Assembly (NCBI GenBank): GCA_944349805.1
Contig: CALVNP010000055.1
Span: 1,565-65,564 of the forward strand
Length of the DNA: 64,000 nt
Direction: 5' to 3'
From: an uncultured Clostridia bacterium
GTDB taxonomy: Bacteria; Bacillota; Clostridia; Christensenellales; UBA1242
Part shown: piece by piece, positions 15,718-21,729 of the stretch
Numbering within the stretch: the first letter of the stretch is position 1
How the letters are laid out: every line of letters begins with the position of its first letter
Translations under genes and position numbers: made by a program
Notes under the pieces: model-generated
The model's database searches: none
What the model was told of the DNA's origin: nothing
Seen by the model: only the letters and a program-made list of their open reading frames with translations

Positions 15718-15794
15718 GTGGGTATAGCTCAGCTGGATAGAGCGTCCGCCTCCTAAGCGGAAGGTCTGCAGTTCAAATCTGCATACTCACACCA
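15718..15794 (+). tRNA. Element-borne tRNA-Arg (anticodon CCT), complete
   Basis: GTGGGTA-TA-GCTC-AGCTGGATA-GAGC-G-TCCGC-CTCCTAA-GCGGA-AGGTC-TGCAG-TTCAAAT-CTGCA-TACTCAC-A-CCA. 77 nt with a canonical cloverleaf and one G-U pair in the acceptor stem. Confidence 0.92.
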
Positions 15795-15925: not shown

Positions 15926-16288
15926 ATGAAATATACACCTTTTGGAGAATTTTATAAAATACTTCGTATAAAAAATCATGAGAACTTAAATGACGCTAGT
16001 AATCTTTTAGATGTGTCACCAGCTTTTATTTCATCTGTAGAGTGTGGTAAAAGACCTGTTCCTGATGATTGGTATAATATTTTATGTAAACACTATTCTT
16101 TATCACAAACAGAACAGTCACAATTAAAAGACGCCATAGACGCATCTCAAACTATTGTCAAGTTGGGGTTACTTAATGCATCTCTTCAGCAAAGAAAAGT
16201 TGCTGTAGCATTTCAGCGATCATTTGATAATTTAAATGAAGAGGTAGCAAATGAATTATTAAAAATCCTTAATAAGGTTAAAAAGTAG
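15926..16288 (+). CDS. XRE-family helix-turn-helix regulator (ImmR/CapH-like)
   Basis: 120 aa. The HTH is LNDASNLLDVSPAFISSVECGKRPVP. RBS AAGGAG. Its stop overlaps the start of the downstream metallopeptidase gene (TAGTG). Confidence 0.8.
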   Translation: MKYTPFGEFYKILRIKNHENLNDASNLLDVSPAFISSVECGKRPVPDDWYNILCKHYSLSQTEQSQLKDAIDASQTIVKLGLLNASLQQRKVAVAFQRSFDNLNEEVANELLKILNKVKK

Positions 16289-16812
16289 TGGATTATAAAA
16301 CATATCCAATTAAACGACAATCATTGAGAGAAATTGCGTCTATATTAAGAAAAATATTTGGCTGTAAAAATAAGTATAAATTTAATGTTGTGGATTCTTT
16401 TGAAAGAATACATTCTTTATTCTCCAATATTTATACGGAAGTAGTTGAAGATGAAGAATTAGAAAGAAATATTCCAGCAAGATGTATTCCAGATTTTGCA
16501 AATAATGAATATTTGATACAAGTTAAAAATTCAGTTTATGAGGGTGCTTGCGATGAAATTGGAGGATATCGAGCTCACATTCTACACGAAATATGTCATG
16601 CCATACTTTGTATTTTAGGTTTCGTTCCAATTATGGATAGACAGTACAAAAATAATGAAATTAAATGTTATGAAAGCATGGAATGGCAGGCAAAAGCTTT
16701 GTGTGGAGAAATTCTAATGCCATATAATGAAACTCAAAATTTAAGTACTGAAGAAATTATGAGATTTTGTAAAGTTTCTAGAGATAGTGCAGAAAAAAGA
16801 AAAACTTATTAG
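16288..16812 (+). CDS. ImmA/IrrE-family zinc metallopeptidase (ImmA/CapP-like)
   Basis: 174 aa with HEXXH motif HEICH within AHILHEICHAIL. It is translationally coupled to the upstream XRE gene, the classic repressor/anti-repressor protease arrangement. Confidence 0.75.
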   Translation: MDYKTYPIKRQSLREIASILRKIFGCKNKYKFNVVDSFERIHSLFSNIYTEVVEDEELERNIPARCIPDFANNEYLIQVKNSVYEGACDEIGGYRAHILHEICHAILCILGFVPIMDRQYKNNEIKCYESMEWQAKALCGEILMPYNETQNLSTEEIMRFCKVSRDSAEKRKTY

Positions 16813-17018: not shown

Positions 17019-17237
17019 ATGGGAACACTGTACACACTTATTACCGGTATGAGTATAGTAGGTATCAAGGCATTAGATATATTCCTATCTTTTATATTTG
17101 ATTGCTTGTCATTTACTATTGCTTGGAAGATTGGTGGACTAGGTACGACTTCAAAAATGCGTGGCTTTTTACACTGGTCTAGTAGAATTGGTATATATAT
17201 TTTATTAGTAATCACAACAAAAAATATAATTTTATAG
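17019..17237 (+). CDS. Small 2-3 TM membrane protein, first gene of the CBASS-like operon
   Basis: 72 aa behind the very strong RBS AAGGAGGTG with 5-nt spacing. It is hydrophobic. There is only a faint resemblance to the N-terminal part of phage_holin_4-type holins. Confidence 0.5.
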   Translation: MGTLYTLITGMSIVGIKALDIFLSFIFDCLSFTIAWKIGGLGTTSKMRGFLHWSSRIGIYILLVITTKNIIL

Positions 17238-17243
17238 GAGACA

Positions 17244-18485
17244 ATGTTTATGGATAAATTTAAAAAAGAAGAACTAATGAATAAAATTGCGCATGCACTG
17301 GATATCACTCCTCAAATTTATAACGAATCGATAAGTGCTGTTCGTGGATTAAGTGCTTATATAAAAAATCAAATTAAAAATGTTGAGATTTATAAACAGG
17401 GTTCGTTTAAATTGGGCACAATAGTTAGACCATATTACAAAGATAAAGACGGCGAATTTGATATTGACTTAGTAGTACAATTTCAAGCGAGCAAAAATAA
17501 TATAAAACCTTCAACAATAAAACAAGCATTAAGATCATGTTTATCTTCTCAAAATTACAGGAACTTATTAGAAGAAGAAAAAAGAAGATGCTGGACTTTA
17601 CACTATCCTTCTAATACGTGTTCATTCCATGTTGATTTATTGCCATGTGTTGATGAATCATCAGAAGTTAAAAGCTCTATTGCTCCTGTACAATATAGAA
17701 ATACCTCTATTGCAATAACTGAAATTGAAGATAAAAAAAACAAACCTTATAATTATAAATGGATGACCAGTAATCCTAAAGGCTATGCTGAGTGGTTTGA
17801 TGATATCAATCAACGTGTTTATGGAGAAATAAAAAAACAAGATAGGCTCAGAGTTTTGAACGAGAATATAACAATGTTTGATTCTATTGATTCTGTTTCT
17901 GATGAATATACTAGAACTCCTTTGCAACAAGTAATACAAATATTAAAAAGACATCGTGATGTTATGTATTGCAACGATAGCGACAATGCTCCAATCTCTA
18001 TTATTATAACTACATTGGTTGGTAAGATTGTTGAAGAAAATCCAAAAGTATACAATACCACATATGATTTATTAAATTCTGTTATCGAAGGCCTAAATTT
18101 TTATTCTCAACTAACAATTGGTGGTATAACAACAGATTTTAGTGAGGATTTTAAGACCAAAAAATTAATTACTAAAAATATGCAAAACGGTAAACCTTAT
18201 TGGTGTATAAAAAATCCAGCAAATTCTCAAGAAAATTTAGCAAACAAATGGAATGAAAATCCAGAAAAAGCAACTGAATTTTTTAAATGGGTTCGTCAAG
18301 TAAAAAGTGATTTGATAGATATATTAGACTTTGAGCCAGAACAAATTAAGCAAAAATTAAAGTACTGTTTAGGAGAACGAATTAGTAACCAGGTTTTATA
18401 TGATTTTAATTTCAATAACATAGATAGTTCTAAATCACGCACATTAAATTTTAGTGATAGTACTCCTAAACCATATAGATGGTAG
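17244..18485 (+). CDS. CD-NTase / SMODS-family nucleotidyltransferase (CBASS cyclase candidate)
   Basis: Pol-beta-type NTase motifs QGSFKLGT...(13)...EFDIDLVV, with the third acidic residue in FHVDLLPC. The downstream LKRHRD and SIIITTL helices are typical of cGAS/DncV-like enzymes. RBS AGGAG. The second ATG at 17250 is better spaced from it. Confidence 0.7.
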   Translation: MFMDKFKKEELMNKIAHALDITPQIYNESISAVRGLSAYIKNQIKNVEIYKQGSFKLGTIVRPYYKDKDGEFDIDLVVQFQASKNNIKPSTIKQALRSCLSSQNYRNLLEEEKRRCWTLHYPSNTCSFHVDLLPCVDESSEVKSSIAPVQYRNTSIAITEIEDKKNKPYNYKWMTSNPKGYAEWFDDINQRVYGEIKKQDRLRVLNENITMFDSIDSVSDEYTRTPLQQVIQILKRHRDVMYCNDSDNAPISIIITTLVGKIVEENPKVYNTTYDLLNSVIEGLNFYSQLTIGGITTDFSEDFKTKKLITKNMQNGKPYWCIKNPANSQENLANKWNENPEKATEFFKWVRQVKSDLIDILDFEPEQIKQKLKYCLGERISNQVLYDFNFNNIDSSKSRTLNFSDSTPKPYRW

Positions 18486-18489
18486 CCTT

Positions 18490-19170
18490 ATGGATTTTGA
18501 TTTTTTTAGAGATGGGCTCGTATTATTTGATGAATATCAATTAACAAAGTTTGACAAATTTGAAACAATCTCTGGGATATACAACTTAGATGTGATAGTT
18601 AAAGATAAAGTTTATCAAGGGAAATTTGCAGTAATTATAAATATTGAAAATACAAAAAATTTTATTCCAGAAGTTTATTTACCAAATCTTTCTTTACCTT
18701 ACAAATTCGAGCATGTATACAAAGACAAAAACAATTTATGCTGTTTAGGATTAAACTATGAAATTGAGCTAACTTGGGGAGAAAAACGTAACTTTTATAA
18801 TTTTTTAACAAAGATCTTAGATCCTTTCTTAGTAAATTATTTAGAATACTGCCAAACTAAAAATTATATAAACGGTGATAGACCTCATGCAAAAGAAGGA
18901 TTAATTGAGTACTACTCTCAATTTTTTCCTAATGAAAACCACAATAAAATAATTCCTATTTTATTATATTGTTATCATAAAATTTCAAGAAACGAATTTG
19001 CAAAAGGTAATAACTTGTGCCCTTGTGGCAGCGGTAAAAATATTAGGCATTGTATTCATCAACAGAAAATTAGAGAATTTATTAATAATGCATTAAATAA
19101 TGCTTACTTAAAAAATGCGTTTCTAAACGATATGAAAAATTATATAGGAGACAAAAATGAGCAAAGGTAA
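18490..19170 (+). CDS. E2/UBC-like protein with C-terminal SEC-C zinc motif (Cap2-short-like candidate)
   Basis: The sequence shows a UBC-like layout. The beta-meander is GKFAVIINIENTKNFIPEVYLP. The catalytic-loop-like segment is EHVYKDKNNLCCLGL (H75, C84/C85). A helix TWGEKRNFYNFLTKILDPFL follows. The C-terminal CPCGSGKNIRHC is a SEC-C motif. The start is uncertain (ATG 18490 or GTG 18454). Confidence 0.5.
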   Translation: MDFDFFRDGLVLFDEYQLTKFDKFETISGIYNLDVIVKDKVYQGKFAVIINIENTKNFIPEVYLPNLSLPYKFEHVYKDKNNLCCLGLNYEIELTWGEKRNFYNFLTKILDPFLVNYLEYCQTKNYINGDRPHAKEGLIEYYSQFFPNENHNKIIPILLYCYHKISRNEFAKGNNLCPCGSGKNIRHCIHQQKIREFINNALNNAYLKNAFLNDMKNYIGDKNEQR

Positions 19171-20296
19171 AAATATTAACAAAGAAACAAGAAACTATTC
19201 AAAAGAAACAATAGCTTTACTTTATGGAAAAACTGCAGGTCATTGTACAATTTGTAATCGACCTTTGCAGTTTGACAATTACTCCCATAGTGATGTAAAC
19301 ATTTCAGAAAAAGCACACATTAAACCTTTTAGCGAATTAGGACCTCGCTCTTCAACTGAAGTTTTAACCACAGAAGAAAAAAACGGTTATGATAATTTAA
19401 TTTTGCTCTGTGGAGCATGTCATTCTACTATCGATAAAAAAGTTTTAGAAGGTGTATATACTGTAGACTGGCTGAAAGAGGAAAAAATACGAAAAGAAAA
19501 ACAAATACGCGAAGTGATGAAGTGTTTAACTCCAAAAGAAATATATTGCTTAAAGTTATTTAGCCCGATAGCTGATTCAAATTTTGATTATGATGATAAT
19601 TTGTTAAAAAGATTGTGCTACAAAAATGGTTTTCATGTAAATGAAACTTTAATTGATTTAGGAGATAATCTTAATATTGAAAATAAAAAAATAAATTTAA
19701 CTGTATTCAATCAACAAATAAAATCTAAAGTGAAATTATTAAATAATAATGGAGAAAATAATGAACTTTGTATATTTGCACTTGGACCACAATATTTGTT
19801 AATAAAATTAGGTTATGAATTATCCGATAAAATAGATGCACATATTTTTACAAAACATAGAAATGGATGGATTTATGATAATATCAATGAAAAGAAAAAT
19901 TACTTTTCTATAATTCGTCCTGTGAAAATTGAAAAAAATAACCAAGTGTCTATAATTGTTTCATCTAGCGCAGAAGTAAATCACGATAGAGTATATCATT
20001 GTTTAGGTAAAAATATAGATATCTGGGAATTAAAGGCAAATAATATAGGTATTGATAATATAAATTCAATAGAAGAAATAGTACAGTTTTCAATTCAATG
20101 TGTTACTATTATTGATAATATTGGCACTATATATGGTAAGGATAAAATAATTAATTTATTTCCTGCTATGTGTAATTCTTTGGCTGTTAAATTTGGACAA
20201 TCAATATTTCATAAAAGCCATAATAAAATTTTGATATATGATACTATTAAAGATAAAACAGGGGAAATAATAGAAAAACCCATTTTAAAAATTTAA
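19157..20296 (+). CDS. HNH endonuclease fused to a SAVED sensor domain (Cap5-like CBASS effector)
   Basis: The N-terminal HNH is CTICNRPL...EKAHIKPFS...NLILLCGACHSTID. The C-terminal ~230 aa contains two CARF-like repeats (ELCIFALGPQYLLIKLGYELSD and IINLFPAMCNSLAVKFGQSI) as in SAVED. RBS AGGAG. It overlaps the previous gene by 14 nt. Confidence 0.7.
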   Translation: MSKGKNINKETRNYSKETIALLYGKTAGHCTICNRPLQFDNYSHSDVNISEKAHIKPFSELGPRSSTEVLTTEEKNGYDNLILLCGACHSTIDKKVLEGVYTVDWLKEEKIRKEKQIREVMKCLTPKEIYCLKLFSPIADSNFDYDDNLLKRLCYKNGFHVNETLIDLGDNLNIENKKINLTVFNQQIKSKVKLLNNNGENNELCIFALGPQYLLIKLGYELSDKIDAHIFTKHRNGWIYDNINEKKNYFSIIRPVKIEKNNQVSIIVSSSAEVNHDRVYHCLGKNIDIWELKANNIGIDNINSIEEIVQFSIQCVTIIDNIGTIYGKDKIINLFPAMCNSLAVKFGQSIFHKSHNKILIYDTIKDKTGEIIEKPILKI

Positions 20297-20337
20297 AAAA
20301 TATCCACCACCAATAAATTTGGTAGTGGATTTTTTTA
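20296..20337. terminator. Bidirectional terminator between the Cap5-like gene and the integrase gene
   Basis: A 12-bp stem ATCCACCACCAA/TTGGTAGTGGAT with one mismatch, with an A-run on one side and a T-run on the other. Confidence 0.75.
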
Positions 20338-21729
20338 TCCAAAAATTTTATTGATTTTTTCTGAGGCGTGGATGTCGCTATTTTGCAAAAAGTGAGAATA
20401 AAAGTCGCTTGTCGTGCTTGCTCTGGCGTGGCCTGCACGCGTTGAAACCGTCTTCATATCAACTCCAGCATTGAGTTGCAATGTGATATTGGTATGGCGC
20501 AGCGAGTGTAGTGTAACCTTAGGCAAACCCGCTTTATTCAAAATCTTATGTAGCCAAACTATGTATAGCCCATGTGATATTGGCTCACCAGAATCTGTTG
20601 AGAACAATCTATCAATCGTTTCCCATCTATCGCCAAGATATGACTTATGTTCTTGCCACCAAGTTTGGTATTCCTTTAAATATGTGATCAAGTTCTCTGG
20701 CATTGAGATCGTTCTTTTGGACGTTTCTGTCTTTGGCTCTTTTGTGAATATCCCAAAACCAGGTAATTCTTGCACTGAGCGGCATATTCTCATTGTGCCA
20801 TTTTCAAAGTCAATATCTTTCCACTCAAGGCCACCAAGTTCACCGCGTCTAAGCCCCATATACAAAATTGTTAAAATTGCAATGCGCCAACGCGGATTTA
20901 TTTCTTCTTCTCGCAAATAGCGTTCCAATTCAATAGCCTCTTTATCATTAAGGATTTTTATTTCCTTTTTATATCCCTGTATAGGAGCAATGTATTCTTG
21001 GGATGCAAAATTGTGTTCAATTAAGCCTTGACGCTTTGCACTCGCGAGTATTGTCGCAAGCGTGCGCTTTAGCTTTAATATTGTTTCTTTTGCATATGGA
21101 TGACTATCTGTTTGAATTTTGAAATAATCATCAAATTTGAGATTTAAAATTTCACATAACTTTTGTGCATTTGAAACTAATATGCCATGGCCTGAAAGTG
21201 CTGAAAAGTATGTTGACCTAGAAAAGTCGTTTTCTCGCAGTTTCTTGCACAAATCTACCGAATGCGATCTTACAAATAGTTGTAAATCTTTAATAAGGAA
21301 CGCTCGTTCCATTTGCACTTTATGGCTGCAAAGCTTGTCCAAATATCCTTGTACTGTTATTGGCCTGATGTCTGCAAGTTTGATGTTCCCAAAGTATTCT
21401 TCAAACTTTCGCAGTGCATCTCTGCCTTTAATAAAGTAGTTGACTGAACGCGTCATTTTAATCGTTTCAAGCCACTTGTATGCATATTCCATAAAGGTGA
21501 TAGAATCGTCAACCATAATGTCGCCATTCAGTTGCTTTCTAAACTTGTCTTCAAATTCAATTTCAAGGCGTTTAAGTTCCTTTTCACATTGTCTCTCAGT
21601 CAGTTCTGCAGGCTTGCGCCATGTCATAACCTTAGCCTCAAATTTACCTGTTCGCAAGTTTTTTGCTTTGACCTGTATGCGATAAGATATATCACCATTT
21701 TGCAAAACATTCTTTTTTATGCATCCCAT
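20335..21729 (-). CDS. Tyrosine site-specific integrase
   Basis: 464 aa. Box I is LYMGLRRGELGGLEWKDI. Box II is LHSLRHTNIT...AGHARASTTSDFYSH, giving the R..HxxR..Y catalytic set. The N-terminal arm-binding-type domain is GDISYRIQVK. RBS AGGAGG. Confidence 0.92.
   Translation of the reverse strand: MGCIKKNVLQNGDISYRIQVKAKNLRTGKFEAKVMTWRKPAELTERQCEKELKRLEIEFEDKFRKQLNGDIMVDDSITFMEYAYKWLETIKMTRSVNYFIKGRDALRKFEEYFGNIKLADIRPITVQGYLDKLCSHKVQMERAFLIKDLQLFVRSHSVDLCKKLRENDFSRSTYFSALSGHGILVSNAQKLCEILNLKFDDYFKIQTDSHPYAKETILKLKRTLATILASAKRQGLIEHNFASQEYIAPIQGYKKEIKILNDKEAIELERYLREEEINPRWRIAILTILYMGLRRGELGGLEWKDIDFENGTMRICRSVQELPGFGIFTKEPKTETSKRTISMPENLITYLKEYQTWWQEHKSYLGDRWETIDRLFSTDSGEPISHGLYIVWLHKILNKAGLPKVTLHSLRHTNITLQLNAGVDMKTVSTRAGHARASTTSDFYSHFLQNSDIHASEKINKIFG

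Follow-up and report, generated by a model that had tools for sequence, protein, structure and literature searches.

An E2-only CBASS operon whose E2-like regulator bears a SEC-C-type knuckle and whose cyclase tail lacks the prototype glycine

We analyzed a 64,000-nucleotide stretch of contig CALVNP010000055.1 from an uncultured Clostridia bacterium (forward-strand positions 1,565 to 65,564 of the contig; hereafter the window). It contains an operon of a CBASS (an anti-phage signaling system based on cyclic oligonucleotides), in which tightly coupled genes encode a nucleotidyltransferase of the cGAS/DncV-like kind (CD-NTase), an E2-like protein and Cap5 (HNH-SAVED), in this order. The middle protein very probably serves as E2-like regulator in a CBASS of the E2-only (type II short) class that resides on an integrase island, and by analogy it would act in the manner of its Serratia counterpart. 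Judged by its genes, the operon is an intact and ordinary member of a known system. Two of its features, the putative zinc knuckle of the E2-like protein and the non-glycine tail of the cyclase, are family-wide and are at odds with statements that derive from the single studied prototype.

E2-only CBASS operon in the window

The operon comprises the following genes, with positions counted in the window and protein lengths in amino acids (aa).

17244 to 18485, forward strand: CD-NTase cyclase, CdnG-like (PADLOC Cyclase 1e-93; Pfam SMODS and DncV-like NTase)
18490 to 19170, forward strand: E2-like (UBC-fold) CBASS regulator, 226 aa, with a C-terminal helical extension (PADLOC E2 PDLC00872, 2.4e-31)
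19157 to 20296, forward strand: Cap5 effector, HNH nuclease with SAVED sensor (PADLOC endonuclease effector 3.5e-69; Pfam SAVED 4.6e-28 and HNH)

The cyclase retains the GS...DxD...D active site (G53-S54, D73, D75 and D131), and its closest solved relatives are 9woo (5e-35) and SmCdnG of Serratia marcescens (8hsb, 1.5e-16). Its open reading frame opens at ATG 17244 (MFMDKF...). Homologues start with MDKFKKEEL, which corresponds to the second ATG at 17250, and this ATG is better spaced from the AGGAGA site than ATG 17244. ATG 17250 is the likely start, and the protein probably has 411 aa; residue numbers used here count from ATG 17244.

A sensor-domain effector, Cap5, is found in the same operon, as in other E2-only CBASS, and the start of its gene overlaps the 3′ end of the E2 gene by 14 nucleotides (nt). 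The window Cap5 matches two Cap5 structures in the PDB, 7rwm (3.6e-28, full length) and 7rwk (6e-22), which appear to be those of the 3′,2′-cyclic GMP-AMP (cGAMP) CdnG-Cap5 systems of Fatma et al. 2021 (PMC8568899). The CdnG-Cap5 operons of Asticcacaulis sp. and Lactococcus lactis described in that study have the same three-gene layout as the window operon. Their middle gene, not studied there, likely belongs to the same family as the window E2, as judged by layout rather than by sequence.

A Pfam scan of six proteins, the complete operon among them, found no ThiF or JAB domain. The sole ThiF match of the genome and one sub-threshold JAB match both lie on other contigs. (The genome assembly amounts to 926 kb in 55 contigs and was scored 98.7% complete.) Thus, a preliminary description of this locus was right that no E1 or JAB partner is present. 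Such a lack is explained by the class, because E2-only CBASS has already been described, with 616 CBASS operons found to have E2 alone (Yan et al., 10.1101/2022.05.25.493364).

UBC fold of the E2-like protein

The mechanical open reading frame of the E2 gene begins with a GTG and spans 18454 to 19170 (238 aa). Because the homologues all begin with M-[DAE]-[FY]-[DE]-F-F, the real start is ATG 18490, 4 nt past the cyclase stop codon TAG (18483–18485), and the length of 226 aa that had been proposed for the protein holds.

Seven PADLOC E2 models match this protein, the one listed above being the best, while Pfam and NCBIfam gave no family match above threshold for it (SEC-C was sub-threshold in Pfam). 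On the other hand, a family profile built from 48 sequences matches eukaryotic UBC E2s, including 2h2y (1.5e-6), UBE2W (1e-4), RAD6, UBC9 and UFC1. The match spans the beta-meander/His/Cys region, where ‘fHiysdgtlCLgv’ is aligned on ‘tHVYSNGDICLSV’ of 2h2y. When family members were individually scanned with Pfam, two reached Prok-E2_B and two reached UQ_con.

An AlphaFold2 model was made from the 48-sequence alignment, with a predicted local distance difference test score of 94.1. Its elements come in the order of helix, meander strands, His/Cys loop, long crossover helix and then extra helices that flank the knuckle, which agrees with the N-terminal helix, four-stranded meander, His-x9-Cys loop and crossover helix of the UBC fold and with the UBC-like order read earlier from the sequence. 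A helix following the catalytic loop had been said to start with Trp, but in the model W96 ends helix 89–96. When the model was compared with the PDB by Foldseek, a tool that the preliminary description had named, the best real matches were UEV domains (TSG101 UEV, a UBC-fold variant) with probabilities of 0.90–0.95 but weak E-values. The UBC assignment is sound, resting mainly on the sequence profile; Foldseek alone is suggestive.

The residues discussed below are located as follows.

18468 to 18482, forward strand: cyclase tail K409-P410-Y411-R412-W413, in which KPY is the conserved motif, R412 occupies the position called X below, and W413 is a variable last residue
18712 to 18744, forward strand: catalytic loop of the E2 from H75 to C85, EHVYKDKNNLCC, aligned with tHVYSNGDICL of UBC 2h2y
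18886 to 18900, forward strand: H133...G137 loop of the E2, DRPHAKEG (H133 146/146, G137 146/146)
19018 to 19059, forward strand: SEC-C-type knuckle of the E2, C177-x-C179-x8-C188-x-H190 (C177 and C179 146/146, C188 145/146, H190 138/146)

In the 48-sequence alignment, P60, H75, C85, H133, G137, C177, C179 and C188 are invariant. Among the full-length E2 family members, H75 is kept in 145/146 and C85 in 146/146, while position 84 is Cys in only 28/146 and Leu in 84/146. Because C84 is unconserved and C85 invariant, C85 is predicted to be the catalytic cysteine. Of the two catalytic-loop cysteines pointed out earlier, whose codons are indeed at 18739–18744, C85 therefore stands and C84 does not. 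H133 would correspond to H152 of SmE2, the E2 of the Serratia prototype, as 48 residues separate C85 from H133 and 51 separate C101 from H152.

In all loci with a called pair, about 16 (L001–L009, L011, L012 and L040–L045), the E2 gene is directly 3′ of the CD-NTase gene. This sample is too small for a covariation test. One protein, P0045, is a natural cyclase-E2 fusion, and a search with its E2 region matched P0045 alone.

Scanning 1.8 billion representatives yielded about 492 E2 relatives at E ≤1e-3, counted as clusters at 50% identity, and most of them have 210–260 aa. The family proteins, typically of about 220 aa, are of UBC type in their N-terminal half. Accordingly large in number, knuckle-bearing E2s appear to make up a large share of E2-only CBASS regulators. 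They are publicly annotated as ‘hypothetical protein’ or ‘SEC-C metal-binding domain-containing protein’. A scan of a genome collection with the single E2 protein returned one locus, and a plasmid tblastn with the E2 returned five matches, all weak. Among 401 same-phylum genomes sampled, a full-length E2 of the family occurs in only 4. A larger set of 90/401 genomes that initially matched was discarded, as most of the matches scored low and covered just the knuckle region, many of them in frames of SecA size.

Incidentally, a metagenomic protein of 360 aa (P0010) matches the E2 family over its first ~155 residues, and its remainder resembles a Cap5-type SAVED region. This chimaera has no H133 loop, no knuckle and no HNH domain, and it probably arose by deletion from an operon similar to that of the window.

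Cys/His knuckle shared by the family

The knuckle sequence CPCGSGKNIRHC lies at 19018–19053, where the preliminary description had placed it, and the fourth ligand H190 is encoded at 19057–19059, making the motif C177-P-C179-GSGKNIRH-C188-I-H190. The pattern CPCGSGKxxRxCH or a near variant is present in 152/158 retrieved sequences of the E2 family; the knuckle is thus common to the whole family rather than peculiar to this locus. The window spacing, CxCx8CxH, is the minority form found in 16 members vs 119 with CxCx8CH.

Over the knuckle, the family profile is aligned with 1ozb, the zinc domain of SecA, at E 5.5e-6. Pfam SEC-C scores 15.9 bits on the window protein alone, whose spacing is CxCx8CxH, and this is under the 20.4-bit cut-off; it reaches E ≤0.01 in 18/48 family members (best 2.1e-6). 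In agreement with the earlier suggestion, the PADLOC match and the profile matches to 2h2y and 1ozb support the middle gene product as a genuine E2-like regulator of CBASS that carries a knuckle of SEC-C type.

The SEC-C motif of SecA and YchJ (PF02810; 1ozb, 1sx0, 1tm6, 9l6b) has the CPCGSGKxxRxC-H pattern in common with the window E2. There it forms a free tail at the C-terminus, with SecB or ribosomes as binding partners, whereas the motif of the E2 is internal and packed between helices in the model, and in the clade of the window E2 a further residue precedes the His (C-x-H). Most likely, the knuckle binds one Zn2+ and staples a family-specific C-terminal helical sub-domain.

The matching PADLOC E2 models have 216–241 positions and are aligned through the knuckle, so the long form is already catalogued. 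In the literature searched, SEC-C together with CBASS or SMODS led only to unrelated uses of the motif; no paper describing the knuckle and no experimental study of the knuckle-bearing E2 sub-family were found. The word ‘zinc’ is absent from the preprint of Yan et al. (10.1101/2022.05.25.493364), and no metal site is described in the Results of Xiao et al. (PMC12948482).

Cyclase tail and the prototype glycine

In the Serratia prototype, the 162-aa SmE2 removes E407 from the tail of SmCdnG and links the cyclase to itself, as G406 forms a thioester with C101 and then an isopeptide with K159. This linkage uses H87 and H152 and occurs without E1, ATP or cofactors. It is abolished by G406V and G406L, while G406A is tolerated. 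Cryogenic electron microscopy (cryo-EM) density and mutants place the link at G406, and Y405A has no effect (Yan et al., 10.1101/2022.05.25.493364). The E1-independent processing and conjugation with H87, C101, H152 and K159 are also reported in Xiao et al. (PMC12948482), and both sources call G406 highly conserved in E2-associated cyclases.

The Serratia system (8hsb, 8yjy, 9kkb) resembles the window operon in that its CdnG-like cyclase is extended in the C-terminal region and is followed by an E2 on its own, E1 and JAB being absent. The His...Cys...His spacing of H87/C101/H152 is similar to that of H75/C85/H133, and in both cyclase tails an aromatic residue precedes the reactive position, which is followed by one or more removable residues. 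On the other hand, SmE2 lacks the knuckle and the C-terminal helical sub-domain that the window E2 has, and the effector in Serratia consists of 2TM-SAVED and an exonuclease instead of Cap5. The tails also differ, being Y-G-E in SmCdnG and Y-R-W in the window; Gly406 is penultimate, and its window equivalent is R412, followed by W413.

In type II CBASS with Cap2 and Cap3, a UBC-like E2 module likewise acts on the C-terminus of a CD-NTase. For that reaction, an E1 adenylation domain is needed together with a free Gly or Ala at the terminus, and the link is reversed by a JAB protease (Ledvina et al., 10.1101/2022.03.31.486616; Jenson et al. 2023, PMC10097602). Unlike these, the window system has neither the ThiF-like E1 adenylation domain nor a free Gly/Ala end nor JAB. 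The preliminary description had measured the cyclase end against this terminal Gly or Ala, which is the wrong yardstick, because the E2 of an E2-only CBASS cleaves and conjugates the cyclase tail by itself without E1 or ATP. Thus, what had been observed at the locus is confirmed, and how it had been interpreted is partly supported. Neither the lack of E1 and JAB nor the knuckle nor the non-Gly tail makes the locus special, as the first defines a described class and the other two recur throughout the family.

The cyclase does end in ...PYRW, as had been described. More fully, it ends in ...T-P-K-P-Y-R-W before the TAG, with Gly at neither the terminal nor the penultimate residue, and R412 stands at the position of the conserved G406 of SmCdnG. 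Nine close relatives end in T-P-K-P-Y-[R/K]-x, with x being W, C, R, G, S or I. When the 120 best cyclase homologues were surveyed, [KR]-P-[YW]-X followed by 1–13 further residues was found in 117/120, which fits a tail that is processed. Among these 117, X is Arg in 52, Gly in 28, Lys in 13, Ser in 8, Cys in 5 and others in 11, amounting to 12 residue types (R, G, K, S, C, N, L, A, Q, T, I and Y). Arg, as in the window, is the commonest state. Because X is mostly non-Gly in the homologues, the published ‘highly conserved glycine’ cannot serve as a rule for this clade.

Tails of every kind that was looked up occur together with knuckle-type E2s, as in the following loci.

L011: KPWG at the end, a single residue past the aromatic
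L040: KPYGE
L041: KPYGYKNDEV
L044: KPYGL
L012: KPWRYSE
L042: KPYRN
L045: KPYRR
L043: KPWYDG

The fusion P0045 reads RPWR-SNG... ahead of its E2 domain. Between L044 and L045, whose cyclases are 77% identical, X flips from Gly to Arg with no obvious compensating change in the E2. A charge pairing between E2 position 91, which is acidic in 78% of the members, and Arg/Lys at X was considered and rejected, because L044 with its Gly tail has Glu there and its close relative L045 with an Arg tail has Ala. In the literature searched, no paper testing a non-Gly tail in E2-only CBASS was found. A preprint on a phage-protease activation loop (PMC12991175) was also set aside, as it concerns an internal cyclase loop, neither the tail nor an E2.

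Tail codons and the E2 ribosome-binding site

In loci with an Arg or Lys tail, 1–4 nt separate the stop codon of the cyclase from the start of the E2, and therefore the codons for X and X+1 sit where the E2 Shine-Dalgarno sequence must be. In the window, the final two amino-acid codons of the cyclase gene also form the E2 Shine-Dalgarno region (18474–18489), and likewise at the junctions in L001–L045. Codon pairs at X and X+1 such as AGG GGA, AGG AGT, AGG GGT and GGA GAG occur 5–10 nt before the E2 ATG, and the window's own pair is AGA TGG. When X is Arg, it is encoded by AGG in 7/9 loci, compared with 15% AGG among the Arg codons of the same operons (binomial 5e-5, a value inflated by the shared ancestry of five of the loci).

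This overlap with the ribosome-binding region suggests that X is loosely constrained at the protein level. Two readings would fit: the E2 site tolerates Arg as the donor, or the cut is made after the invariant aromatic residue, with X and the rest of the tail as the leaving group.

Proposed mechanism and alternatives

We conceive the following course from the Serratia prototype and the CdnG-Cap5 systems, by analogy. The E2 would dock on the extended C-terminal region of the cyclase, and the K-P-Y-R-W tail would thread into the C85/H75 site. With H75 and H133, C85 would attack a peptide bond of the tail, so that the last residue or residues are released and the cyclase is held as a thioester. 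The cyclase would then be transferred to a lysine with no E1 or ATP, in a sortase-like transpeptidation, and this transfer would prime or activate it. Upon infection, the cyclase would make a cyclic dinucleotide, probably 3′,2′-cGAMP-like, which would bind SAVED of Cap5 and turn on the HNH DNase, aborting the infection.

Several results weigh against such a Serratia-like course. R412 is found where SmCdnG has Gly406, and because G406V and G406L abolish the SmCdnG linkage, the published mechanism does not account for Arg there. The 48-sequence alignment has no conserved lysine where SmE2 has its acceptor K159. SmE2 (8hsb chain B) was unmatched by two E2 family members in phmmer with E up to 10, and was not among the 60 of 95 profile matches or the 50 of 568 Foldseek matches listed, so the mechanism is carried over from a distant relative. 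Foldseek gave no PDB match better than E 0.05 for the E2 model.

The E2 could process the cyclase with a different acyl donor, the invariant aromatic Y411. R412-W413 would then be the leaving group, with its codons free to serve as the E2 ribosome-binding site. This would account for [KR]P[YW] being conserved while X takes 12 residues, for the Gly/Arg flip between L044 and L045 without an E2 counterpart, for the placement of the X and X+1 codons just before the E2 ATG and the preference for AGG, and for the KPWG end of the L011 cyclase with its single residue past the aromatic. However, the SmCdnG link was assigned to G406 by density and mutants with Y405A being without effect, the codon statistic is inflated by the ancestry shared among five loci, and the window's X codon is AGA rather than AGG. 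We consider Y411 an improbable donor. It is also quite unlikely, in our estimate, that the E2 of Arg/Lys-tailed systems never conjugates the cyclase and is instead a non-covalent clamp or a tail-trimming protease that keeps the cyclase inactive until infection. The loss of linkage with bulky residues at the Gly position of SmCdnG, the sole tested system, and the lack of a conserved lysine at the SmE2 acceptor site would agree with this, but H75, C85 and H133 are (near-)invariant across Arg-, Lys- and Gly-tailed systems, which argues for retained cysteine chemistry, and Gly- and Arg-tailed cyclases share one E2 family.

That the protein is no E2 relative at all but a SEC-C-domain protein with an unrelated function, whose His/Cys stretch resembles that of E2s by chance, is hardly credible. 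Its lack of a Pfam or NCBIfam family match, the annotation of its relatives and the weak Foldseek E-values might be read so. Nevertheless, the profile matches many UBC E2s, aligned exactly on the His and the Cys, and this comes with the Prok-E2_B and UQ_con matches of two family members each, the seven PADLOC E2 models and the strict adjacency to CD-NTases.

We tentatively raise a further proposal, which we regard as possible but doubtful. The long, knuckle-bearing E2s may follow an acyl-donor rule unlike that of SmE2, either accepting Arg/Lys or cutting after the aromatic residue of K-P-[Y/W]. They would be sortase-like transpeptidases with a specificity of their own, and the knuckle sub-domain may be a regulatory input instead of a structural staple.

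The window itself is of little consequence, adding another intact E2-only CBASS, carried by a mobile island, to those known. The statements ‘C-terminal glycine highly conserved’ and ‘E2 structure highly conserved’ were drawn from one studied system and do not describe this sub-family. Most cyclases that pair with it carry Arg, Lys or a different residue at the position for which the prototype requires Gly or Ala. Whether such tails are tolerated by E1-independent conjugation bears on ubiquitin-like ligation without ATP.

Island and neighboring genes

The surroundings of the operon contain the following features.

15718 to 15794, forward strand: tRNA-Arg(CCT) by ARAGORN, just 5′ of the regulator genes
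15926 to 16288, forward strand: helix-turn-helix (HTH) regulator, weakly CapH-like (Pfam HTH_31 E 1.4e-3; PADLOC capH E 2.6e-3)
16288 to 16812, forward strand: M78/IrrE-type peptidase, weakly CapP-like (Pfam Peptidase_M78 E 8e-4; PADLOC capP E 0.028)
17019 to 17237, forward strand: small open reading frame of 72 aa, hydrophobic, at the operon head directly 5′ of the cyclase, with a strong Shine-Dalgarno sequence AAGGAGG
20335 to 21729, reverse strand: tyrosine integrase (Pfam Phage_integrase 2e-19), with an equivalent integrase 3′ of the operon in L001 and L006

Because the operon lies between the tRNA-Arg(CCT) gene and the tyrosine integrase gene, the CBASS is the cargo of an integrative island. 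The HTH gene overlaps the peptidase gene in the window, and an HTH and M78 gene pair occupies the equivalent site in relatives L001 and L003–L008. This pair upstream of the operon weakly resembles the CapH/CapP transcriptional switch.

The small open reading frame gave no match in a family search. Near-identical counterparts of 71–72 aa are found at the equivalent position in L001, L003, L006 and L008, and its product may be a small membrane component, so far undescribed, of this clade of CBASS.

At one other locus (L040, 1–6000), an E2-CBASS with the KPYGE tail, a knuckle E2 and a SAVED effector lies directly 3′ of SMODS, SAVED and SMODS+AGS_C genes, and these CBASS-type genes together form a tandem CBASS cluster.

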